A stretch of DNA of 64,000 nucleotides, taken from Podarcis filfolensis (Eukaryota). A program made the position numbers and the translations under genes. The stretch lies in the NCBI GenBank assembly GCA_964270895.1, contig OZ185447.1. One strand, given 5' to 3'. Below, in pieces: positions 20,749 to 64,000 of the stretch (position 1 is its first letter; every line of letters begins with the position of its first letter). The notes beneath the pieces are model-generated. The model saw nothing but the letters and a program-made list of their open reading frames with translations. It ran no database searches and was not told the origin of the DNA.

Positions 20749-23700
20749 AGAATGGATATCCTGTATGGAAGAGGAAAAGGCAGATCTAGATTATTAATTA
20801 AATCAGATAATTACACTATTCATACTGGTCTGGCTTGCATGTCACATCAGGCAAAAACATAATTTAGGATACAGGAATTCTACAAATCCATAGTTAGTCT
20901 GGAGAAAGTTAGGGCATTAGAGTGGATTCAAATCTCATGGCATGGCATGGCAGCAAAGTGATCAGAGAAGAACAAAGTAGATTAAATTTTCTTCCTGGAA
21001 GCCCCCATTCTCATATGTTGATGCTAAATTATGGTTTGCTTAGCCTGGCATGCAGACCAAACCATTATCTTTCCCACTCCCTCATTTTCAATCTTGCTCA
21101 GAACTGTTTTATTAATGAATGTAATTACCCCATAAACCTCATACACAAATGCCTTTGAACTTGGATTAAGAATTGTCTAAGTTATCACATGCTTGAATTC
21201 AAAACAGATTTTGCAAAATCCTTAGGAATTTAAGAAGTGCCTGCTGAATCAGCCAAAAGAGCCATGTGGTTCATCATTCTGTTCTTACAGTGGCTTTCTA
21301 TAAGACCCCAAAGAGGGTGTGAATACAATAGCACTCATAAATGGGCATTGTTCCCAAATTTTCCTAATTTATTCTCAGACTTTGGGATATAGTAAAATGA
21401 ATGGATTCAGAATTCTCTCTTGGGTCCTTTTATATTTTACAATTTTCTACTTTCTAGCACTACGTGTGCATAGTTTTGTTTCACTTTCAGCTTTCTCATA
21501 TATTCCCACCTCACAATCTTCCACATGTTGATAATGTACAGCTGTACATATTGTGAAAAAGTGCAGAAAAAGAACTTTCCTGGGTAGATTTTTTGGTGAA
21601 GCAAAAATAGTGGTTTGGCTTACAGTTCATTAAATACTAGCAAATTTATAATTGCATAAGTTTTTGTGGTCTACAGTGCATAGTTGAATGTGTTGACTTG
21701 TATGCATTGCTAAAACAGTGTAAAGAAGTAAACTTGATCCAATTGTACATGCAGTTGGATAAAGATTCTTATAAGTGAAGGAACTCACTGCACTCACACT
21801 TTCCAAATATCCCAACTGCAAGTCATCCACCTTGCAGGTAGAATAATTTAAAAAGAGAGAGGTCAAGTGGCACCCACAAGCCTGCTTTGAATCATTTGCA
21901 TTTTATTCATTAATTATGTCTCTTTCCCTTTCTTTTCCTCATTTGTTTATTTCCCTCACCTTTACTTTTCTTGATTATGATTCTAAATGAATCAAAATAA
22001 ATATACATATGATCCCATTGTTGGGAGTTTGCTAGGAATTGGATCTAGTTGTCAACATTGCTGTCCTTAATACACACACACCAGAATGGCTGCTTACTGT
22101 CCTGTCAGTGAGTGGCGGTTGCAGCCTGACGTGGCACCTCCTCTCTCCCCTAGACATGCAGCACCATTTTAGATTGTTTCCCAATCCCCTCCGGCCACTG
22201 TGGAGGCTCACGGGTTTCCACTTGTCCCTCAAATAAGGCAATCCATGGCAGCCCTGGGGTGGCATGGCCATCTACTTATCCCGGCCAACCACTCAGCACA
22301 GCATCCCGTCGGCTGGGAACATCCTTAATACACATACACACACCTCAACACCAGAATTAAAACACAGGCAAGCATATTCATGTTTCATCAGAATTTATGA
22401 CCTTTGATTTAGATTTAACAATCATACCCCCCACACCCTTAAAAACTTACTTTGCAGAATGAATGTTTGCTCTTTCTTGCTCCAAAGAAGTGAAAAATGG
22501 AGTTCCAAACATAGGTATTTTCATAGATGTGCTCTCACCCTCAATACAGCTCAGGATTGAAGAAAAGTGTTGGGAATACCCTGCCAATGAATTCATGGAA
22601 GCAACAAAATTCTATGTATTTAATCCACTAAAAAGAAGTGGTGTTATCTCTAAAGTTGCAAGGAACATCAAATTATTTACAAAAATCCTATGTTTCCAAA
22701 GCCATTTAAGATACAATTTTCCAATGGCTTTTTATATATTTAGCATTTCTAAATTCTTTTTGTATACTGCTTTTAGTCCCCCCCCTTTTATAATCAGACC
22801 ATGTGTATGATTTTTATGAAATAAATAATTTATCTTTGTGTGACTATTCAACAGACACATGTTCAGAGGAAGCATAAGAGTGGTAGCAAGTCCTGCTTCC
22901 GACCTACACATTTGCTAGAACATCAGCATGTTTTCTACCAGGTGTGCAGCATTAGCTTTGCTAAACTGGAGAATTGCTCCACCACCCACCCTAATATTTG
23001 CACTTTTTATATGGATGTTTGAAGTGAAATCACTAGGCACAACCCGATGCTCACATCTAGGTGGAATTTTGATGTATTCACTGTATTTATGCCATCCAAT
23101 GCTGGAGGGAACCTAATTCCACAGGGAAAGTGTTGGGAACCTTCTTCTGATAAAATCCATCAGGGATAGAATGATAATAAAACAGTGTTGTAGGGAAATT
23201 CAGGTCAAAAGACCTCTAGAGAGTTCAAAAAGTGCTACATGCAGAAATATATTTTCCCTTTTGGTATGGAGATGAAACAGTCAATATCATCACAAACTCA
23301 TTCATTAATGCTTGGTAGGGAAGAATCTGGAAATTATGCTTGGTCTATTAGAATACAATGAATAGGCATTTGCTAAAGCTACCCTTTTAGGTAAATTCCC
23401 ATCAGTATTTCTAGTGCAGGTAGACAAGCTTTCAACTCCCACAGTTCTCTTATGAGGCCTCTCTCCCACAGCCTTCCTCTCTATTCCCAAAAATGGGAAT
23501 GGAGAACCTGACCATTGGCATTGCTGCCTTTGGTAAAGCGTGTTCTCATTAAAGGAGAGCACGTGTTGCAGATGGGGCCAGGCAAAGCACCCTGTGGTTG
23601 CCAGGCAGGATAGATTGAAGGGGCCTGGCTTGGATTGGTGGTTGGTGTTGCTGGGGTAAATTTGATGTTGCCAATTTGGGGGTGGGAACAGAGGTTATTT

Positions 23701-24622
23701 AAACAAGGTTCACAGCAAACTGCTTTCTCTTTCACTGTGGGCACCGGATCAGTACGGAGCATATTCAGCTTGTATAATCTTCCCTCATTTTCTCTCCCCC
23801 CCTCCATTCTATAGTTATTATTCTTTCTTTTAATTTGTTCCTTGTCCTATATTAGCATAATTTAGTTGTCTTGGTTTATTCCGCATCCCCGGCTGCCTCT
23901 TAGAGGAGGGGTTGGGGGGCACACAGGCTTAGGGCCTGTGGGGCTGGCGCCTGGCCTTGAACCCCGGGGGGCTTACGGCCCAGTTCTCAGCCAAAGCTGA
24001 AGGGGCCCCGGGCCAGGAACCTTGCACGGCTGGCAGCAGAGTGCTCCCCTCGGCAGAGGCTTAAGCGCTACCCCGTAGGGCTGAGCGTTTCCTGGGCTGC
24101 TTGCGCTGCATGGGGAGCTGCGCTTCGCGGGGTTTGCACAGGCCGCTTTGGGGCTTTTGCTGGTCGTGGCCTGGCTGCAATTTTCCCAGCGACTTTGGGT
24201 GCTGGGGACCGCCCCGCTGCCTTGTTGGCTCTGTGTGAGCCTTTCTCCTCCTTCCCACCCCCCACACTATCCCCGGCTGCTGGAGGCAGCCAGGGAGGCT
24301 GTACCAAGCGGCGGGGGACTCACCGGCGTTCCTGGGGCCTCTGGGGTCGTCCTCCGCATGGCGGTTGCCAGCGGCGGGCTCAGGCACGCTCCGGTGCATG
24401 GCGCCCATCCAGGCCTTGCCGCGTTAAGTGAGAGGCGCTCCGGGAGCGCCTTGGCACAGCCGTTCAGCGCTTCTGCACTTTCGGCAACAATATTGGCCCT
24501 GGGAGCCTCTTCTCCCTTTTTTGTTTCTCCAACAGGGCTTCAGGGCACCTGGTGGGAGCAGTTGGTGGGCCCGCCATTTTAGGTAGTCGGGCGGGAGCAC
24601 CATTTTGCTTCCTTACAGTCAG

Positions 24623-24771
24623 AGTGGCAGCCTCTAGTGGCCATCCGGCATAAGTGCAGGGTTTTTTCAACCCTGAATTTAAGTGGTGGCCTCTAGTGGC
24701 CGTTCTGATAAGTGCAGGATAACTCTAACATTGAGTGGTGGCCTCTAGTGGCTGCTTCGGGTAAGTGCAGG
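24623..24771 (+). repeat. Three imperfect direct repeats (AGTGG.GCCTCTAGTGGC...TAAGTGCAGG) in the element leader
   Basis: Copies at 24623-24660, 24682-24718 and 24734-24771; the third ends in the consensus donor CGG|GTAAGT. Confidence 0.85.
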
Positions 24772-25005
24772 GTATTTCCATCTGCACGTTTTGCCACCCA
24801 GGGGTGGCTTGTAATTTTGCAGCTTTCTATATCGGTTGCTAAATTATATTGAGTTGTTCTATTTGCTGCCATTTGATGTATGATTGCATTGTTGCTTATC
24901 TTATTTGATTTAATCAATTTAATTTAATTTAATTTAATTATTTGTTAGCCACATATTCATTTCTTATTTTAATTTTATAAATTTGTCTTTTCTACTGGCA
25001 GCAGG

Positions 25006-26470
25006 ATGGCTCCAAAGAAAAAGGTGCCAAGGATGCCTGGACCCGTGTCCTCGGCAAAGTGGCCTATAAAAGGCCCGTCCCAGGCTTTGCGTTCCCCCGA
25101 GCCTAGCCAGTCGCTGACACACCTCCAATCCATGGTCACTAGTTTAGCTGGTGACCCTGTGGCACTGGCGCGAGTTGAGGCCGAGATGGATGGCCTGATG
25201 CAATGCTGCTCAACTCCGTCAACTTCTTATGCGAGGCTGGCTCCTCCAGTGCATGCATCTTCTCCGGTGTCGCCATCTAGTGAAGATGAGAGAGGAATAT
25301 CATCAGTCGGGGGTTTCTTACCTAACACGCAACTGGCCCAGTCCCTGGTCTTACCTGTGTCCCAGGCTGCCACGCCAAGGGGTCAGGGTCGCACCAGGGG
25401 TGTGGCCAGGAGAAGGGCATCTACCCGTGGCTAGGTGGCGCGGGGTTCATCTGCGCAGTCTTCTGCAGCTGAAAGGTCGGTTCCGGGTCATTCACAGGTT
25501 GTCTCTTTTCAGTCAGTTCCAGGTGCTGTGCAGCAAGGCGATATGTCAGAGTCTTCAGTTGAGGACAGCCTTCCTCCACCTCCAAAGACCTCTTTCGCCA
25601 GGCACCGCCGCCACAAAAGGAGCTCCAGGAGGCTCGCCAAGAGGAGACGGCAGGACACCTCATCCTCCTCTACAGGAACTTCATCCCAAAGTTCCAGTAG
25701 TGATGAGGAAGCTTCTCTTAAACTTTATTGGGGCTTCGGGGAGACCTTGGGGCTCCCGAAGTGGGTTTGGGAGCGAAGGGCAAACTCTCACAGGGCGAAG
25801 TACGGGGCGGTGCAAGATTGTCGGAAAGGGGTTCTGGTGCCTAATGTAAAGGTATCTACCAATTCGGCTAGAGATCTTATACCTGGTGCCCACTTGGCTA
25901 CCAAATTGAGGTCCAGGATTTTGAATGGCCGTTATGTTGATATATTTAGCCTTGCCCCTCCGCTAGATGGTCAGGAGCTACAGGAAAAGGGCTTTGCCGC
26001 CTCTAAAAAATGGACGGTCTTAGCTAAAGTGGATAGGACATTTGAACGCTGGTTGGATAGCTTCCAGGTCTTTGCCGGAGTGGTGTCAGCAGCTTATCCT
26101 AGGAGATCTCTGCACTTATGGGTGTATTTGTCTATAGTCCGTTCGGCCTTTACAATGGCCGGGAAACTGCTGCGATATCTTATGATGAGAATTTTAGACA
26201 CAGGGCTGCCAAGATCCCTACAGCCCGCTGGGATCGGAAGGACTTGGATGTGTGGACCACTTATGTGGCTCCACGTATTGACAAAAAGGCTCCAGAACCA
26301 CAGAAACCTAAGGCTGTCCCAGCAAAGGCGGGTCGCAAGCTGTTTTGCTGAGACTTCAACAAGGGTATCTGCCAGCGTCAATCCTGCAGATACCCACATG
26401 TGTGTGAGAGGTGTTCTGGGAACCATCCGGCATCCGCTTGTGGGGGGGGCCGGCGGCCCTTTCGGAAAGG
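25006..26470 (+). pseudogene. gag-like ORF1 of element 1 (stops/frameshift), with C-terminal zinc-finger-like Cys/His motif
   Basis: Pieces 25006-25434, 25435-~26160 and 26118-26351 (SYDENFRHRAA...W); C*DFNKGICQRQSCRYPHMCERCSGNHPASAC with TGA in place of Trp. Confidence 0.8.
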
Positions 26471-28498
26471 GGGGCCTCTCAGCAGCCCTCAAAAGCCGCT
26501 CCCCAGGCCCCAGCCGCTGGAGCAGGAAAGTAGTATCCTATCCTCCTTAGCCTATACCCCGGTACGGCTACAGCCATTACTTTCATTATTACAGTCATAC
26601 CTTGACTGGGACATGGCGTCTTATTTGCGTGGTGGTTTTTCTTTAGGCTTCAGAATTCTGGTGGTCTCAATCCCGGTAGCTAGGAACCCTGCAAGCCAGA
26701 AGTCCGTTAAGGACATGCCAGAGGTGGCACGTAAGAAAATCGGGAAAGAACTGGCTTTACGTCGTATGGCCGGCCCTTTTGCCGTTTCCCCCTTTCCCAA
26801 TTTGCACATTTCACCTTTAGGTATAGTTCCTAAGAAAGCACCAGTGGAATTCCGCCTAATTCATAACCTTTCACACCCTAGGGGCACATCAGTAAATGAT
26901 GTTATTCCCCCAGAGCTTTGTTTGGTGAAGTATGCTTCTCTTGATCATGCGATCAAGATGATACAGAAATTTGGGCCAGGTGCCCTACTGGCCAAATGCG
27001 ACATTGAATCTGCATTTCAGCTGCTTCCAATTCACCCCGACGACTTTTGGTTGCTAGGTTTCCAGTTTGATGGGGGATTTTACTTTGATAAGGCCATGCC
27101 CATGGGCTGCTCGGTAGCCTGTGCCGCCTTTGAGTGTTTTAGTTCATTTCTGGATTGGGCCTTGCGCAAAAGAACTGGTTTGGGTGGAGTCACGCATTAT
27201 TTGGATGATTTTTTATTGGCCTCAGCTAGCGATACGGGGAACTGTGTTGTGTTATTGCAGGCCTTTGCTTCCTTAACGCAAGAACCGGGCGGGCCGTTGG
27301 TGGCGGAGAAGACTGAGGGTCCTTCTATGCAGCTGACTTACTTGGGTATCTTGTTGGATACTGTGGCCCAAACTTCCAGCTTGCCGGCAGATAAGATATG
27401 TTAAAAGGGGTCATTGAAGAACTGCTTCCCTTGAAGAAGGTTACCTTGTGACAGCTGCAGTCGTTGCTAGGTGACAGGATTTATGAGCTGACAAGTTAGC
27501 TAAGATAAAGCTCCGGGCACGTCGCCACCTTTGTATAAGATTTATTGCTCATCTTCAAAGCATTTTTTACAAGAGTTCAAATACATACATCCTCCTTCTA
27601 CGACTGAGATGAATCTTCTGGCTCCTCCCTCTGACGTCTCCAGCAGACCCATCTCTTGAGTCCACGCCTCCTCTTTCCTCCGCTCTGTGAGTGGCTAGGT
27701 CCTGGCATCGGCTCCCCCCTCCCAGCCTCTTCGTCTGACGTGGAAGTAAAGCTGCTGATTGCCTGCTTGGGCTCTCTATACTTGTCTCCCTCTACCTTCC
27801 GTTCTCTGATAGCCTCCCATTCCCTGACACTAGGTCACCTGAATTTTGCTTGCAGGGTGGTCACCCCGGGGCGACCATTCTGCTCTTGCTTGGCCAGACA
27901 CATGTCAGGCTTGAGGGCCCCACAGCATAGGGTGCGCCTTTCTTGTCAGGTGCGGGCTGACCTTCGTATTTGGTTGGAATTCCTGGAGGAATTCAACGGG
28001 GTGTCTCTGTGGCAGGACACTTTGAACCTCCACAATGATTTTCAGGTGCACTCCGATGCTGCAGGGTCTTTGGCGTTTGGCCTGTTTTGGGACGGTAGGT
28101 GCTGTGCTGAGCACTGGCCTCCAGCTTGGCGTGGGGAAGCTATAACTCGGGACCTAACTTTTATTGAGTTTTTTCCCATTGTAGTGGCCGTGCATTTGTG
28201 GGTCGAGCATTTCAGGGACCGTCAAGTCTGTTTTTGGTCCGATAACCAGGCGGTGGTGAACGTGCTAGCCAAGCAGTCTTCACAATCTCCTAGGGTATCA
28301 GCCCTGTTACGGGCTTTTGTTTTACATTGCTTGCATTTTAACATTGTATTTTCTGCTCGTTTTGTCCCTGGCATATCTAACGAGATTGCTGATGCTCTGT
28401 CCCGTTTTCAGATGGAGCGATTCAGGTCCCTGGCGCCAGTGGCTCGAGACCGTCTGGAATTTTTCCCGGATCATCTCTGGAACCTTGGCAGCACTTAG
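26400..28498 (+). pseudogene. Reverse transcriptase / RNase H of element 1, interrupted
   Basis: PKKAPVEFRLIHNLS, LAKCDIESAF, MPMGC, HYLDDF, LGILLDT; RNase H SDAAG, FIEFFPI, WSDNQAVV, ADALSR. Frameshift near 27400, a stop, and a solo-LTR insertion. Confidence 0.93.
27472..27829 (-). mobile_element. Solo LTR (358 bp) nested in the Ngaro RT-RH linker
   Basis: TG...CA termini (TGACAGGA / TCCCTGACA), perfect 5-bp TSD CTAGG (27467-27471, 27830-27834), AATAAA on the minus strand; removing it restores QSLLGHLNFAC. Confidence 0.88.
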
Positions 28499-29385
28499 TT
28501 TTACAGGGAGAAGCTGCATCTATTGCCCCCTCCACTCTGAGGTCTTATAAAAAGGCCTGGACTGACTTTTTACACTTTACCAGGCAGTCGGTTGTAGGGG
28601 AAGTTAGTACCCCCCATTCTACTGCTCAGGTGCTCCAGTATTTGGCGCATCTATTTCAGATGCGTCGGGCGGCCAGGAAGCTGAGAATTCATACAGCGGC
28701 GATTTCTTTCTTTAGCAGGGCGTTTTTTAACAAGGATCCATGTGGGAAGTTTGTTGTGCGGAAGGCACTTGAGGGCTGGGGGCGACTTTGTCCTTCCAGG
28801 CCAACTTCCAGGTGGCCCATCACATTTGATTTGCTGACAAAGATGCGCAGTAAATTGAGGAGCATCTGTTGGTCTAGGTTTGAGGCTTGGCTATTTTCCG
28901 CAGCCTTTTCATTAGCCTTTTTGGGGGCCCTGAGAGTGGGGGAGGTGGTCCTTGAGCCTAAGCGGGATGGAGGTTCAAGTGGTTTGTTGTTGCAGGACGT
29001 GAGTCTGTCTCCGTTAGAATTGCAAGTCAATGTCAGGAATTCAAAAACTGATCAACTAGGTAGGGGAGCGGTTATTTGGCTCCCGGCAACTGGGGAGGGG
29101 GGCCCTTGCCCGGTTAAGGATCTCAAGAAATATTTGGCCTTGCAACCTACAGGTGAGGGCCCTTTGTTTATTCATGAGAACGGGCATCCATTGGCGCATC
29201 ATCAGTTCACCAAGGTATTGCGCAAAGTTATTGCAGCATGTGGCCATGTGGCTTCTGAATTTGCTCCTCATTCCTTCCAGATTGGGGCTGCAACAACAGC
29301 TTCCCATTGGGGTTTATCGGTGGAAAGGATTAAAGACCTGGGCCAGTGGAAGTCGGACGTGTTTAGAGGTTATGTGCGGATATGA
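28412..29385 (+). pseudogene. Tyrosine recombinase of element 1 (frame open, catalytic HxxR changed to HSFQ)
   Basis: APSTLRSYKKAW, GALRVGE, SKTDQ, CPV, HSFQIGAAT, GQWKS, RGYVR. Confidence 0.92.
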
Positions 29386-29425
29386 CATTGATTTCGTGTA
29401 CTTACGTTTCTTGTTTTAACCCTAG

Positions 29426-30000
29426 GTCTAGCCACTATTCGCATCTGGATAGTGGGGCACAGTACTGTGCATTGGGCTGCTGACAGAGCTCGTCAGTCCG
29501 GATTGGGAGATGGCCTTGGCCTTCCGCAGCACGTACAGGTGTCCTGGATCTCCAGAATGGGGATGCTGTGGAAGGAATTCTTACCACTTATGCAGAGGCG
29601 TATTCTCCTGGATGGCCTTCCTACGGCGATCGTGGTGCAGCTCAGGGAAAATGATATGGTTTCCTCTTCTTGTTATGTTTTGTGTGCTGCTATCTTACAA
29701 GATTTGAGGGAATTGGCGGCCATGGTGCCGGCAACTAAAATAATTTGGTCACAGTTGCTGCAACGCCGCATCTGGCGGGGTAGTCCTTGCCCAGCTGCCA
29801 CCAAGCAAGTTAGGAAGCAAATTAATTCTGCAGTGAGCAAGTTGGTGGTTGGTTTGGGTGGGTTTGTGATTCCTCACCCTTTTATTACTTTCAAAGCCGC
29901 TGAATTCTATAGGATGGATGGGGTTCATCTTTCCTCATCTGGGAATGACGTTTGGTTGAATTCAGTGGTGGCTAAGTTGAGGGTGTGGTTGAGTTTGTGA
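29426..30000 (+). CDS. SGNH/GDSL hydrolase-like ORF of element 1 (no ATG start; begins at a splice acceptor)
   Basis: Block I IWIVGHS, block II GM, block III QLREND, block V DGVHL. Confidence 0.82.
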
Positions 30001-30029
30001 GTGGTTGGCGGCGAGCGTAAGGGCTCGAG

Positions 30030-30470
30030 TGGCGGTTAGGCATTGGTTTAAATTGGTTGGTGGAGGGGGTATGGATTGGCTGTGCCTGCCCCTCCAATGC
30101 TGCTGCTGCACGGGAATTCCGTTAAAGGAATCCAGGGGCTTACCATCCTTTCGTCCAAACCCCTGGAATCAGGTTTGGGCCGCGTAAGCCCCTGGGAGCA
30201 TGCGGGGAGAAGCTGAGGGTCTGTGCCACAGCTCCAGTTATCCCTGATCTTGTTCCTCCACACTGGCTTTCGCTGGAATCTGGGAGTCAGTGCTGTCCCC
30301 TAGGCGGGGGCGGGGGCAGATAGTCATAACCAATGCCTAAGCAACCACTCACAATTTGTATGTTTAATAAAGTTGTAGCCAAAATTATGCCAAAAACCTT
30401 AAACAAAAATTTATGAGTGATGTGTGAGTTATTGGGGTAGGGGTGTTTTGGGGGACCTCAGTACGCAAAA
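30030..30470 (+). repeat. B repeat of element 1, with 13-bp inverted repeat and poly(A) signal
   Basis: TTAGGCATTGGTT 30036-30048 / AACCAATGCCTAA 30328-30340; AATAAAGTTGTAGCC near 30366. Confidence 0.85.
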
Positions 30471-49350: not shown

Positions 49351-50118
49351 TTTGCGCACCCCCAGGAATAATAAAAACATATTGACACAGAATTTTAGTT
49401 TAAAGGTTAATGGGCATAATTTAGGCCACAACTTTATTGATTACAGAAATGTTAGTGGTACTGGCTTAGGCATTAGCAATAACTATATCTGACTCCTGCC
49501 CGCCTTGCAGGAAATCTAGAAGGGTAAACCACCAAAAGAGGGAGCTCCATCGATGGCGACTAACTGAAACTCACCCCAGGGTTCTTGCTGGGTCCTGGCA
49601 TGGCCCTAGCCCCCAATCAGACTTTGGACGAAACCCAACCCACAGATTCCTTTACTGGAATACCCTTGTACCTGGAGGGGCAGGTGATGGCTGCACCTCC
49701 CCTCCCCCACATCTCACTAAGCCAATGCCTAACCACCAAACCTTACAAAGTTGTAACGATTGCTAAGAGGTAGGCGAAAACCAAATGGCCAGTGCCAATC
49801 TGCCAAATGGAAAAAAGTCCTACCCGGCCCCTGTTCCAAAACAGAAGATCAACCAAAGTCCAGAGCAAGACCAAAGCAGACATCTAAAACATTGGGGGGG
49901 TGGGCAGGTGTTCGGCGGCGTGAAGCCAGGTAAAGCCCCAGCAATGCACCACCACCTTTTAAAGGCCCCCACTCTCCGATTGGCCAATAAGCCATGGCAT
50001 GATCGTGGGGCCACCGCGTGGCTCAGGCTCATCCCCCACCCCCTCCATGAATGGAGGGAGCACCTTGGGCCCATGCACAATGCAGCCCCTCAATTAGGAG
50101 GATCCGATTTCCTGTTTT
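49351..50118 (-). mobile_element. Solo A-B unit of a Ngaro-type element
   Basis: B with TTAGGCATT(A/G)GC inverted repeat, AATAAAGTTGTGGCC and GCAAA end; A with TTTTCGCCTACCTC motif; no ORFs. The A start is approximate. Confidence 0.8.
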
Positions 50119-52116: not shown

Positions 52117-52904
52117 AAAGCCACTCCTGACCTAAGGAGGGGGGGGGTTGCAGGATCACGCCCCCGTCCATGCTCTTGCAGGGCTGGCGTCAGCCCCACG
52201 GGACTCCGGGATTCCCCAGCCTCTTGAATATTCATCGCCCCCAGCGCCAGCCAATCGGCTGGCGGCAGGGGTGGGGTTTCTAGGTGCACTTAAGGTCAGG
52301 GTAGCCTTGGCTCGCCCCTTTCTTTCTCTTCAGCAGCAGCGGTTTCCCACCCACCCGCCCTTTAGGTTCGCTTGCGGACTTTGCTATGGGCTTCGGCTGG
52401 TCACCGCAAGGGGCCTGGTAGGAGTTTTTCCATTTGCCTAATTGGCTGTATTTTAGAAGCCACTTGGTTTTTTCGCCTACCTCGTAGCAAAACGTCACAA
52501 CTCCCTGGTTTTGGCAGTTAGGCATTGGCAGGGGTATTGTTATGCAAATGAAGTCGGGGGGGAGGAATGCCATCACCTCCCCCAAATCCTGAAGGGTAGT
52601 TCGTTAAAGGACTCCGGGGGGCGTCGCCTCGTCCGGAACCTACGGAGGCTAGGGCCTAAAGCACGCTCCCGAGCGGTAACCCCTTGGGGAGCGCCTAGGG
52701 ATGTGCATCTCGGGGGCTCCCCCTGTTGGTGCTTAACCCTTCCCAGTTAGACCGGATAGTCTGTTAGGGCCAATGCCTAAAAGCCAATACCACTCTTACC
52801 TGTAATCAATAAAGTTGTGGCCATTTTCGCCCATTAACTTAAAATTCCGTGTCCGTTGTCTTTATTTACTCCATCAGTGGGAGGGGGCGGGTATTGCCAT
52901 GCAA
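52117..52904 (+). mobile_element. Solo A-B unit of a Ngaro-type element (788 bp)
   Basis: Starts AAAGCCACT like A2 of element 2; collinear with the 789-bp A2+B2; ends GCCATGCAA. Confidence 0.88.
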
Positions 52905-54639
52905 CAGCAACAGGAGATACTTGATTCTATTATGTCCCATGCTGGCTAAACTGTATAATGATGTCACTATCCATAAAAACAAAAAAGCACTGGCTGCATT
53001 AGGGGTTGGCTGCCTCAAAATGAACATGTAGCTAAGTTTGTCAGTGACGTGATAAAACTTAACTTGTGTCATTCCAGATAAACAGGGTGTCACAAGTTTT
53101 CTACCAGGCAAAGGTTATTCACAAAGTTCATACTTTATTCTACACCCATCACATAGTTCTACAACAATTGTGTAGAATATATAATCTACCTAATTCAATA
53201 GGGCTAGTTCTCTATTCCTTGCTTGAAACATTTTTGGTGGTGTCCTAATCTCTCATCTGGCTGAGTAGCAAAACTTGAACAAATTCTGTATACATGTGGT
53301 GGGCTAGTCTGACCCCCACCCACCCATTACTGTGGATGCTGATGATTATTATGTCTGAGCAAAATACAGCTACTGCACAGATGTGCAAGCTGTTAAATCT
53401 CAGGGATGGGAAACTGTGACTCCCCAGGTGTCATTATTCTCCCATTCCCATCAACCACAGTAACCATGGCTAATAGTCAGGGATGGTGAACATTGTAGTT
53501 ATATTTAGGATTCTCCTGCTACTAGTAGTAACAACAGCAACAACAACATTTAGAATAGTCATCTTGGAGCAGACTTATCAGCTTATCTGATCCAGAAGAT
53601 CCTGAAAATTCCATTTTCAACTGTGGTCAACTAATGTCTCCAGGAACATGAAAGCTGGGCATTAAAGAAATAAGCCTCCCCTGATGTTTCTCCCTGAAAT
53701 CTAGTAGCCAGAGACAAAGTGCCTTTGCACATGAGTATTCCATTTAGCTATCAAGGCTATGAAGCCGTTGATAGAACCTATTTCCTGTAAGAATATAAAC
53801 ACATTTATTGTAATAAGTGTTTTTATAAAGAAACTCACCAGGGAAGTTTCCTGAAGGAGCACTTGCTACACAGAGGGATACTTTCGTCTTTATTGGAAGA
53901 AATGCATCTTAAATGGTCTATAGTAAAAGATAAAGATAATGAAGAAGAAACAACCCCTTTCGCTTTCAGTCCAGTCTAGCCCAAGTTTCACCCAGTATTA
54001 CTGAAATGGTGATTTGTTGTAGCAATTGCACGTAACCCAGCTTACTTAAAAAGCCAGTGGCGCATAATGTGCTGGCTATGCATCTTTGCAACTGAACAAT
54101 AGAAATGTCCCAGGCCTGTTAATATTGGTTCATGTTGAGCTCTAGGGAATTCTGCCCTTATGATATTTTTCATGTTATAGTTGCACTTAAGTCTCCCTGG
54201 AATACAGAGACTATTCAGTAAATGCAATTAAGCCCATTTACTTTTAGTCTGTTTTAATTGTGAAAGTTTACTAACATGGAATAGTTTTCGCTTTATTCTA
54301 GGCTGGACAGGCATAGTTTGTGAGTGCAGTTCATTTGCCTTTACTGGCAAGTGGTTGACATCACTCATGGATGTGGCTGTTAGCACTGCTACACAATATC
54401 TGCAGTCCTGGGAAAGCAGGGGAAGCAATAGGCTGTTGAACCACTGTATATGGATGGGGGGGGTATTTTCAGCTTGATGGCTTACAATATGGATGGGGAC
54501 ATATATATTTTTCACCTTGAAGGATACATTCTGTCATGGGCAGCCTACCAGGGCTATTATAACACTGATGGCAAGGGCCAGGAACAAACAAAGGTGGAGT
54601 AACCAGCACAACTATCTTTGCACAGTAGCATATATTCAT

Positions 54640-59088: not shown

Positions 59089-59494
59089 TTTGCGTGGCGA
59101 GTTCCCGCCCCCCACCAGGATAAATAAAGACACAAGACACCATAATTTAAGGTTAATTGGGCGAATTAGGCCACAACTTTATTGAATTTCAGGAATGAGA
59201 GGCATTGGCTTAGGCATTGGTCCTAACGACTATCCGGCTCCAGCCCATTTGCTGGAGACACGGGGAAGGGTTAACCTTATATCGGGGGAGTCTCCTGCCA
59301 AGGCACGTCGACTAGGAGCTCCCCCGGGTCACCGCTCTGGGGCGTGCCTTTGGCCCTCACCTCCATAGGCTTCGGACAGGGCCACGCCCCCCGGAGTCCT
59401 TTAACGGACCACCCTTCGGTCGCTGGGGGGAGGTGATGGCGTTCCTCCCCCCCCACACATCCTCTTAACCCCTTCTTACCAATGCCTACCGCCA
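59089..59494 (-). repeat. B2 split direct repeat (406 bp)
   Basis: Direct copy of 59878-60283 at offset 789; no difference seen by eye. Confidence 0.95.
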
Positions 59495-59877
59495 ATGCCG
59501 AGAAGTTGTGACGAGTTGCTACGAGGTAGGCGAAAAACCAAAAGGCCAGAAATCGCCAATTGGGAAAAATTCCTACCATGCCCCTTGCGGCGACAGACCG
59601 AAGTCCATAGCAAAGTCAAATACCTACCTAAGCCTAGTTAAAGGGAGGGAGGGTGGGAAAACGTGGGGGCGAGCCGGCGAAAAGAGGGTGAGCCCCCTCC
59701 GTGCCGGCCCTAAATAGGGCAGGCCATGCCCCCCCCAGCCAGCCAGCTGATTGGCTGGCTGGGGGGGGCAGACCCGACCAGGATTCCCCTGCTCTCGCGG
59801 GGGCTGCGACCAGCCCCCGCTCATGTGGGGTGGGCGTGAAGCCCGCAACCCCACCTCCTGGGCAGGCCGGAAGTGGC
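59495..59877 (-). repeat. A2 repeat (383 bp) with CCAAT and TATTTA
   Basis: Lies between B1 and B2; homologous to the A half of the solo units. Confidence 0.85.
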
Positions 59878-60283
59878 TTTGCGTGGCGAGTTCCCGCCCC
59901 CCACCAGGATAAATAAAGACACAAGACACCATAATTTAAGGTTAATTGGGCGAATTAGGCCACAACTTTATTGAATTTCAGGAATGAGAGGCATTGGCTT
60001 AGGCATTGGTCCTAACGACTATCCGGCTCCAGCCCATTTGCTGGAGACACGGGGAAGGGTTAACCTTATATCGGGGGAGTCTCCTGCCAAGGCACGTCGA
60101 CTAGGAGCTCCCCCGGGTCACCGCTCTGGGGCGTGCCTTTGGCCCTCACCTCCATAGGCTTCGGACAGGGCCACGCCCCCCGGAGTCCTTTAACGGACCA
60201 CCCTTCGGTCGCTGGGGGGAGGTGATGGCGTTCCTCCCCCCCCACACATCCTCTTAACCCCTTCTTACCAATGCCTACCGCCA
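59878..60283 (-). repeat. B1 split direct repeat (406 bp)
   Basis: Directly after the SGNH stop; copy of 59089-59494. Confidence 0.95.
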
Positions 60284-60311: not shown

Positions 60312-60905
60312 TCATGCCTGAAACCAATCCCCTACCCCCTTTGCTATATCAGTCAGCCGCATGTCATTTCCCGCATCTGAACGATGCACGCCATCAAGCC
60401 AAATATCATTTCCCGCATCCGAAAGATGCACGCCATCAAGCCGGTAGAGGGCCTCACAGTTGCCCGGGTGGTCAATGACCCACCCACCCAGGGCTGCCAC
60501 TCTACGCACCACCGCCTGATCCAAGGCTTTCCTAGCCCTATTTGTGGCTATCGGGCACCTGCTCTCTCTCCAAACCCGGCTTTCCATCAACAAGGCCCCA
60601 AGAATGGTGATGTTTGGATAAGAGGCCTTAAGTTCCTCAAAGTCACTAAAGATATGCCACATCAAGTCGACTACCTTTCTGTAAGCTAAATCCTTTTCGC
60701 CAAAGTGGATAACTAAAGCATCTGGGGGGCCCTCCGCTGCCGCTCTAGCCCTAATCGCGGGCAACATTTCGGCCCAGCGCATTCCCCTCCGATAGCTCCA
60801 AGATATATTGATGTAGTTAAGGTGCGGCCCGAGACCGGAATTGATGGCGCGGGCCCTGGCCCAATGCACAATGCTGTGCCCGATTATCCAGATGTGCGCC
60901 CTCAT
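60312..60905 (-). CDS. SGNH/GDSL hydrolase-like ORF of element 2, 197 aa
   Basis: IWIIGHS, RGMRW, HFGEKD, DGVHL (block V duplicated). Confidence 0.82.
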   Translation of the reverse strand: MRAHIWIIGHSIVHWARARAINSGLGPHLNYINISWSYRRGMRWAEMLPAIRARAAAEGPPDALVIHFGEKDLAYRKVVDLMWHIFSDFEELKASYPNITILGALLMESRVWRESRCPIATNRARKALDQAVVRRVAALGGWVIDHPGNCEALYRLDGVHLSDAGNDIWLDGVHRSDAGNDMRLTDIAKGVGDWFQA

Positions 60906-61043
60906 AGCTCCTGCACCCTAGGTCCCCGTTAACAGCTTGGTTTCTATCCCAGTGGACGGTGCAGGGCCTATACTCCAAATATGCACAACGTCACCTGAAA
61001 GCAAAAGAAGGTAACAAAGCCAGGTCAGGTATACTGTGAACAG

Positions 61044-63439: not shown

Positions 63440-64000
63440 CAAGGGGCAAATTCATACCAGTTTGTGACTGTTCTTCTTGGCGGGTCTGTGAGCTTTTAAG
63501 ACCCCTGGTGGAAATGCCCCCTGCTGCCCGGAAAGGGCTGTTTACCTTTAAAACATGAAGACGCTGGGTGGTTACCTATGCACTTCACACATTCATGCGC
63601 ATACTTACAATTTGGCCCCTGGCACACACCCGTGTTGTACTCCCAGCAAACCTCATGGTGAGGGACTTGCTTAGCTTCACATTTTCCAACTTTCCTTTTT
63701 CCACATAGGGACACATGTGCTCCATCCTGTAATTCTGGTCGCTCGGAACCCAGCAGGTGGTGGGCAGCAGGAAGCTTTTCTGAATCGTCCTCGGCATCAG
63801 AAGGCTTACTTCTTTTGCTCTTCTTGGCCGAATGCTTCTTCTTAGACTTCTTTCTCCCTTGCCCATCATTGGAGACTGGTGCTGTTCTGCAGCCGCTGGC
63901 ACTTCCTGTTGCCCCTGCGTCTCATCATCCGATGATGTTTTGGAGCCTTCCGCAGTAAAGGCTGAGGTTGTGAATCCTGTAGAATAGGAGCCCCCTTCCG
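63440..64000 (-). pseudogene. gag C-terminal remnant of element 2 with Cys/His finger
   Basis: CWEYNTGVCQGPNCKYAHECVKCIGNHPASSC, homologous to the motif in element 1. Confidence 0.8.

Follow-up and report, generated by a model that had tools for sequence, protein, structure and literature searches.

A hydrolase has been described in amphibian Ngaro elements, where it figures as a fourth ORF with no proven function; within the accessible portion of that paper, the strings "splic" and "intron" never occur (PMC9210276). The Xenopus elements DIRS-53_XT and DIRS-54_XT, as far as they are set out there, share with the lizard elements considered here both the order ORF1, RT/RH, YR, SGNH and the A1...B1 A2 B2 repeat arrangement, the difference being that in the lizard elements SGNH is probably not a separate fourth ORF but exon 2 of a fusion with ORF1 (PMC9210276).

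The layout predicted for this lizard fusion, with an N-terminal helical element, an Arg-rich motif and a C-terminal SGNH domain in that order, resembles that of the ORF1 protein (ORF1p) of the zebrafish element ZfL2-1, an active esterase that binds negatively charged liposomes and for which a coiled coil has been shown (PMC3905857, accessible text). ZfL2-1 is a LINE that carries its esterase in one continuous ORF1, whereas the lizard fusion would be assembled from two exons ~3.4 kb apart in a tyrosine recombinase (YR) element, and would coexist with a full-length ORF1 bearing a CCCH finger. The coiled coil and lipid binding are those of ZfL2-1; the lizard protein has predicted helices and a putative lipid-active domain. 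The convergence in layout suggests that coupling a membrane- or lipid-acting domain to the RNP is a need shared by unrelated retroelements. In the bdelloid Vesta retrotransposons, a GDSL-esterase ORF3 occupies the env position, and its authors doubt an env-like role on the grounds that transmembrane and coiled-coil parts are absent; unlike the lizard elements, these are LTR/integrase elements, and the available sections of the paper make no mention of a gag fusion (PMC5408684).

The likeness of the lizard elements to retroviral env lies in an acceptor placed just behind the last pol-side ORF and in a predicted intron that removes the replication enzymes. Retroviral env is expressed from a splice acceptor behind pol, with the donor in the leader or the first gag codons, and has its own start as well as a signal peptide and a transmembrane anchor; in avian sarcoma-leukosis viruses, env retains just a few codons of gag. 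In contrast, the lizard donor sits not in the leader but 209-252 codons inside ORF1, and the predicted fusions lack a signal peptide, a transmembrane anchor and a fusion-protein fold. Splicing in Copia yields Gag without Pol. Alternative splicing within gag gives a second mRNA in Ty1/Copia elements, according to the part of the source available (PMC5580714), whereas the lizard splice would swap the C-terminal half of ORF1 for an enzyme domain.

Subgenomic splicing is common in retroelements, but the exchange of a Gag-like C-terminal half for an esterase in the DIRS order is absent from the searchable literature. No published report of an ORF1-SGNH splice was found in the main text of openly searchable papers on Ngaro/DIRS splicing or hydrolases. 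Such a splice is absent from the accessible text of PMC7192593, PMC6681497, PMC9341512, PMC6338049, PMC4495291 and PMC5408684, and in that of PMC3783388 the terms hydrolase, SGNH, splic, intron and esterase never occur. The splice would explain how the long-noted extra enzyme of Ngaro is produced: it would give the expression of a start-less fourth ORF, a matter that the accessible papers do not take up, a defined donor, acceptor and product, and would name the real protein to assay.

The two elements and their SGNH exon

The window, by which we mean the whole 64,000-nt stretch of DNA analysed, holds two Ngaro-type elements: element 1 on the plus strand (23531-30469) and element 2 on the minus strand, running from beyond 64000 to 59089. 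Both sit among about a dozen seven-helix frames of 308-333 aa (window 1092-57965), which we take, from their motifs, to be an olfactory-receptor gene cluster, with a tandem expansion of these frames at 1-21 kb. Element 1 has frames for ORF1, RT/RNase H, YR and SGNH (ORF list and Pfam), and Pfam detects RVT_1, RVT_3, Phage_int_SAM_4 and Phage_integrase in the region of the predicted intron. Both elements are assigned to Ngaro (DIRS order) by split direct repeats of the A1...B1 A2 B2 type, ORF order and hydrolase ORF. The ORF1, RT/RNase H and YR frames overlap, as in Ngaro, and the hydrolase ORF follows YR, as in some members of the group. Handles of the form L### denote related genomic loci of the same genome, and P#### denotes database proteins; the database relatives come from lacertid lizards and reach 93-97% identity with copies in the present genome, on which ground the host is taken to be a lacertid. 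The repeats are intact in L063, a close relative of element 1, in which A1 equals A2 (217 nt) and B1 equals B2 (434 nt), both at 100% identity. The coordinates given for the two elements in the original prediction all proved correct on recheck (Table 1).

Table 1. Features of the two elements, in window coordinates
Feature	Coordinates	Strand	Remarks
Element 1, 5' split direct repeat A1	23531..23769	+	87% to A1/A2 of related copy L063
Element 1, possible intron in the 5' UTR (GTAAGT from 24761; acceptor-like AG, last base 25001)	24761..25001	+	Not conserved across families
Element 1, ORF1 N-half, the coding part of predicted exon 1	25006..25675	+	tblastn of P0001-P0007, P0010; AlphaFold model
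Conserved phase-1 donor position	25676..25681	+	GA in element 1 (25676-25677), GT in relatives
Predicted intron	25676..29425	+	3750 nt in element 1, including 363-nt insertion 27470-27832
Candidate second phase-1 acceptor, YR frame start, inside RNase H DALSRFQ codons	28394..28411	+
Element 1, YR frame	28412..29385	+	324 codons from candidate acceptor; YR stop TGA 29383-29385
Element 1, SGNH acceptor: branch-like CTTAC (29401), pyrimidine tract, TAG	29401..29425	+
Element 1, SGNH hydrolase exon	29426..30000	+	Catalytic Ser codon at 29461; D-G-V-H kept; Arg in place of the block III Gly
Element 1, repeat B1 (AATAAA at 30366)	30030..30469	+	Element end; A2, B2 absent
Element 2, ORF1 deletion junction, starting exactly at donor	63779..63780	-	Comparison with relatives
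Element 2, SGNH acceptor: CTGAC (61028-61024), pyrimidine tract, CAG	60995..61028	-
Element 2, frameshifted remnant of first SGNH start, in-frame TAG (60920)	60911..60994	-	Best match L148
Element 2, second SGNH exon, own ATG 60905	60312..60910	-	Pfam PF13472 and comparison with relatives
Element 2, 3' repeats B1 (60283-59878) and B2 (59494-59089), A2 between	59089..60283	-	B1 equals B2, 100% over 406 nt

Some minor features of the window belong here. The 363-nt insertion in the RT/RNase H frame of element 1 is missing from other copies. The 5' UTR of element 1 (24620-24790) contains 3-4 imperfect tandem copies of a ~50-nt unit, the last of which holds the GTAAGT donor-like site, and the array is present in L063 too. 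Solo fragments of Ngaro A/B terminal repeats lie at 49359-49839 and 52340-52913 (68-78% to L063 and element 2).

Structure prediction places an SGNH fold in the ORF product. In the model of P0001, the domain has pLDDT >90 over most of residues 231-413, and it matches GDSL hydrolases with a Foldseek E of 7e-08 and 4ppy_A with Z 19.8 and an rmsd of 2.8 over 182 aligned residues. The ZfL2-1 esterase is absent among the structure matches listed for this model. At the level of sequence profiles, a Pfam search does not detect the SGNH domain of element 1 and finds that of element 2 as PF13472 at E 1.9e-05, below the curated cut-off; a PDB sequence search of the domain returned nothing relevant. The residues S235, G268, N298, D387 and H390 are invariant in 12/12 aligned proteins, and the GEND motif occurs in 75/89 genomic contexts, its Ser being part of the search pattern. 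By a dN/dS with a median of 0.16 and a highest value of 0.32 (79 colinear pairs from 26 intact representatives), the SGNH exon is judged to be under purifying selection.

The SGNH acceptor and the donor within ORF1

The acceptor was surveyed at 150 loci of this genome, from which 12 without a block-I motif with enough flank were dropped. The others collapse to 89 distinct contexts, which single linkage at 85% identity groups into 29 clusters. The block-I Trp codon of SGNH is preceded by an AG at a distance of exactly 20 nt in 81/89 contexts and in 27/29 cluster representatives, counts that are not independent trials, here or for the donor, as family representatives share ancestry. Of the two representatives that lack this Trp-20 AG, one has a duplicated start and the other is offset by a single base. 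Over upstream offsets 21-44 only two AGs occur across all 29 representatives, and a branch-like motif is found 15-45 nt upstream of the acceptor in 28/29, as against 6, 2 and 1 representatives in the three windows used as controls. The tract averages 13.8 pyrimidines per 17 nt, the base preceding the AG is C or T in every one of the 29 representatives, and the first two exon bases vary (GT, GA, AT, AG, AA). Between YR stop and AG lie 31-84 nt, with every phase represented among the 19 clusters in which this spacing is readable; the spacing from AG to Trp is constant. Judged by these sequence signals, the Trp-20 AG is a conserved phase-1 3' splice site, its position and phase being shared across the Ngaro families surveyed.

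In element 1 the acceptor AG (29424-29425) is the first AG past the YR stop and ends 40 nt after it. In element 2 it ends at 60995, so that the exon starts at 60994; a decayed first SGNH start follows, whose Trp this acceptor precedes by 17 nt. Both enter the SGNH frame in the same phase, as had been claimed, and that phase is phase 1. The distances of 26 and 89 nt to the frame, on which that claim drew, are right as figures but do not carry the meaning attached to them: the 26 nt run to a Val codon that plays no particular part, and the 89 nt of element 2, like its in-frame TAG, exist because a rearrangement has joined two SGNH starts. This TAG does precede the ATG; it is a product of the rearrangement rather than a native feature. 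The decayed first start, some 27 codons long and most similar to L148, runs into a second SGNH start from a different family, whose AG (60911) has no pyrimidine tract in element 2, the tract being kept in relatives L033-L035. A rearrangement resembling that of element 2 is seen in a subfamily of five loci (L022, L079, L080, L101, L102) with a duplicated SGNH start, laid out as acceptor, ~40 codons and then a second start without a Trp-20 AG. Element 2 belongs with L136, L137 and L138 to a subfamily in which SGNH is 92-99% identical between copies and the B repeats are 100% identical; this subfamily is young and defective, and seems to have spread without intact enzymes.

On the donor side, the N-terminal half of ORF1 comprises two helices, a disordered stretch, an Arg/Lys patch and poly-Ser. 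Around the join, genomic ORF1 copies read basic patch, poly-Ser or an acidic run, and Gly-Thr, with the donor G/GTAC in phase 1. This protein pattern anchors the donor in 40/69 long loci, the other 29 being truncated, deleted or interrupted copies that were not counted. The anchor Gly codon is GGT in 39/40 copies, as compared with 253/790 for other ORF1 Gly codons, and the sole exception is element 1 of the window. Raw Gly codon counts are less telling than a four-fold-column control, which retains the shared ancestry of the families and was preferred for that reason; a binomial P value on the raw counts was discarded because it takes related families for independent ones. In a codon alignment of 22 family representatives, just one of the 19 four-fold ORF1 columns with an invariant residue also has an invariant third base, and it is that of the donor Gly; in the RT-RNase H control the figure is 0/107.

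Against the U1 consensus, no better match was found among the GTs from the start of ORF1 to the acceptor in 25 of the 30 clusters scored. Most donors make 7/9 U1 matches, with C at +4 and frequently a base other than G at +5, for which reason the donor is graded moderate; families without an exonic A at -2 have G at +5. The donor and SGNH acceptor phases match, both being phase 1. Because the codon split at the join begins with G, it can never be a stop, whatever bases the acceptor supplies. The predicted intron, 3375-3452 nt long in intact copies, holds the C-terminal half of ORF1 with its CCCH finger, RT, RNase H and YR.

Neither copy in the window is able to make the ORF1(N)-SGNH fusion. 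Element 1 has GA at the donor position and an in-frame TAG in exon 1 (25432-25434), and therefore cannot do so. In element 2, a stretch of ORF1 that measures 498-524 nt and reads GT...AG in the five closest relatives is missing, starting exactly at the donor. Such a deletion was found in 2/43 loci with a traceable exon-1 end, namely element 2 and its sister copy L138, and so counts as one event, with CAG microhomology; a third locus flagged was an alignment slip and was set aside. It is possible that this deletion is a fossil of splice use, a spliced RNA copied back into DNA, but deletion at the CAG microhomology also explains the junction. Because the candidate AGs at the start of RT are family-specific, the AG at this junction is best read as cryptic.

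The predicted fusion and competing explanations

Database gene models bear on how donor and acceptor are used. In 14 models from four lacertid species, which are themselves predictions, ORF1 is joined to SGNH at the donor/acceptor point, and searches for longer relatives returned such predicted joins in 8/10, 2/2 and 6/11 matches; full-length ORF1 is annotated too (5/11 matches). In these models SGNH is preceded by the first ~220 residues of ORF1, and tblastn maps them to window 25006-25656 and 29425-29997. The join residue stands at Trp-7 in 13/14 fusion proteins, and in P0011 it is Glu, exactly as the G/AG of L098, a relative with 93-97% identity, would give. Over the 32 residues that precede the join there are 11-15 Lys/Arg (P0001-P0007, P0010-P0012, P0014), and the SGNH domain has a net positive charge of +6 to +11. 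The AlphaFold monomer model of P0001 shows two helices (32-46 and 50-67, pLDDT 59-79) and a long disordered part that ends in the basic patch, followed by the confident SGNH domain. Among 101, 98 and 101 scored candidates for the queries P0001, P0011 and P0167, there was no intronless ORF1(N)-SGNH copy; the long open frames of L131 and L132 were rejected as such, since in these damaged copies YR continues into SGNH. Two sets of contig sequences contained no joint between 25675 and 29426, a result that does not bear on splicing. Protein models of non-lacertid relatives differ in their N-terminal parts: ahead of the join, three gecko models carry a basic patch and a run of Ser, which most others lack.

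That ORF1 is spliced to SGNH at all is, on the conserved donor and acceptor, very probable. Since the donor lies well inside ORF1, the likely product is a fusion of the N-terminal half of ORF1 to the hydrolase, and we favor, with a probability of about 0.86, the reading in which a predicted ORF1(N-half)-esterase fusion of 410-430 aa is made beside full-length ORF1. Unspliced RNA would then supply the ORF1 protein and the element genome, while spliced RNA, freed of the ORF1 C-terminal half, RT, RNase H and YR, would encode the ORF1(N)-SGNH fusion. The shared N-terminal half, with its helical pair and Arg/Lys patch, might co-assemble with full-length ORF1 and bind RNA, such that splicing would tag the esterase for the RNP, where membrane lipids might be bound or cleaved in the manner of the ZfL2-1 LINE esterase. 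This last part, in which the N-half carries the esterase into the RNP and the esterase acts on membrane lipids, draws on analogy and is held tentatively, with somewhat more doubt than belief.

The original prediction had compared the SGNH ORF to env, and one half of that comparison holds up: a spliced subgenomic mRNA from behind pol/YR is likely, given the conserved acceptor. The stand-alone product does not, in view of a donor inside ORF1 and the lack of a conserved leader donor, of an own start in most families and of a transmembrane segment. In its full form the env-like scheme would run from a leader donor upstream of ORF1 to the SGNH acceptor and yield an esterase translated from its own start codon, and we consider it improbable. 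A GTAAGT donor does lie 245-277 nt before the ORF1 ATG in element 1 and L061, but leader donors occur in only 5/19 elements, at scattered places, and a conserved leader donor was rejected; acceptor-like sites precede the ORF1 ATG in 8/19. An in-frame ATG just past the acceptor and before the Trp is present in 33/89 contexts, mostly in the element 2 family, where it could open a side route; these make up 4/29 clusters, however, and in the other 25 the ATG is absent. The first Met falls behind the catalytic Ser in 20/26 representatives without an acceptor-to-Trp ATG, and element 1, whose SGNH frame had correctly been said to have no ATG start, follows suit, with its first in-frame ATG at 29557, downstream of the Ser codon at 29461. 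A hydropathy scan of four fusions revealed no signal or transmembrane segment in any of them (highest 19-residue value 1.1-1.3, N-terminal 0.3-1.0). An exon with its own ATG would need no constant phase, and the env-like scheme leaves the invariant GT in the middle of ORF1 unexplained.

Less probable again is that the splice signals are real and serve another role, for example one in which removal of the pol region from the RNA tunes the ORF1:RT ratio or makes a decoy RNA, with the fusion as a by-product or a route for exon capture by the host. Host capture does appear to occur in gene models: three ZNF638-like host models from Podarcis muralis and Zootoca vivipara (P0008, P0009 and P0018) close with an SGNH exon of Ngaro type, the join being once more at the Trp-7 Gly, and host genes may pick up this exon because it brings a strong acceptor and a poly(A) signal. 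Against a mere by-product stand the purifying selection on the exon, the catalytic residues kept across families, and the single phase kept by donor and acceptor. Across the join P0008 and P0018 share 73% identity, and in each of them the catalytic His has given way to Asn. The gecko ZNF318-like model P0030 likewise ends in a Ngaro-type SGNH domain. Five large proteins (P0013, from the gecko Sphaerodactylus townsendi, P0017, P0022, P0027 and P0029) contain 2-6 SGNH-like repeats, with the catalytic Ser motif missing in some, and are possibly domesticated.

Least probable of all is that SGNH is reached with no splicing, from YR by read-through, frameshift or re-initiation or from an internal promoter with a non-ATG start, for although the SGNH ORF begins 50-100 nt behind the YR stop, a programmed frameshift is assumed for the Ngaro YR ORF (PMC13003380, accessible text) and two copies (L131, L132) have YR and SGNH in one open frame, those two are single damaged copies, the YR-to-SGNH spacing falls in all three phases, and the spacer bears every mark of a 3' splice site.

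Expression of YR and RT

If the ORF1(N-half) exon is indeed spliced to SGNH, the same exon may have a second partner. The YR frame opens 18-30 nt upstream of a CAG within the RNase H motif DALSRFQ, at which YR would be entered in phase 1. The Gln codon of this motif is CAG in 46/46 copies, compared with 60% elsewhere in RT-RNase H, and is one of only two invariant two-fold columns among 91, the other being the Phe after YLDD in RT, which is TTT in 16/16 representatives. The Ser of DALSRFQ is TCY in all 46 copies, and its Arg codon is AGR in none. In 27 intact YR frames the first Met has no fixed place (positions 16-144, with one frame having no Met at all), and a slippery heptamer was found in the YR overlap of none of the 46 copies. 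On the other side of the ledger, dual coding could impose part of the codon constraint, a branch motif is clear in some families only, another AG lies close upstream in 12/46 copies, and there was no ORF1(N)-YR gene model among 11 matches. On balance, we put the splicing of the ORF1 exon to YR at about even odds.

Programmed frameshifting has been assumed for the Ngaro YR ORF (Poulter and Butler 2015, quoted in the accessible part of PMC13003380), and shared-tag splicing would, if true, replace that assumption. A wider scheme, in which a single ORF1 donor serves separate YR and SGNH acceptors, and the ORF1, YR and SGNH proteins share a helical, Arg-rich N-terminal half by which they co-assemble on element RNA, is one to which we give slightly less than an even chance. 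Were it to hold, the shared tag would give DIRS-order elements a splicing map like that of complex retroviruses, and splicing would rebuild the same tag-plus-esterase protein for which some LINEs have a single undivided frame.

For RT, a conserved phase-1 acceptor was not found at the start of the frame, where the candidate AGs vary from family to family. In most copies, the RT frame opens 49-148 codons upstream of the first RT motif. The ORF1 stop (window 26531-26533) precedes the first RT motif, [ST]P[IV]xL, by exactly 8 codons in the +1 frame in 20/22 representatives (L064-L147; 17 by pattern and 3 by eye, the other 2 being frameshifted copies). The RT frame itself opens at very different upstream places and has no fixed Met, despite this constant register, which hints at a possible +1 shift at the ORF1 stop codon.
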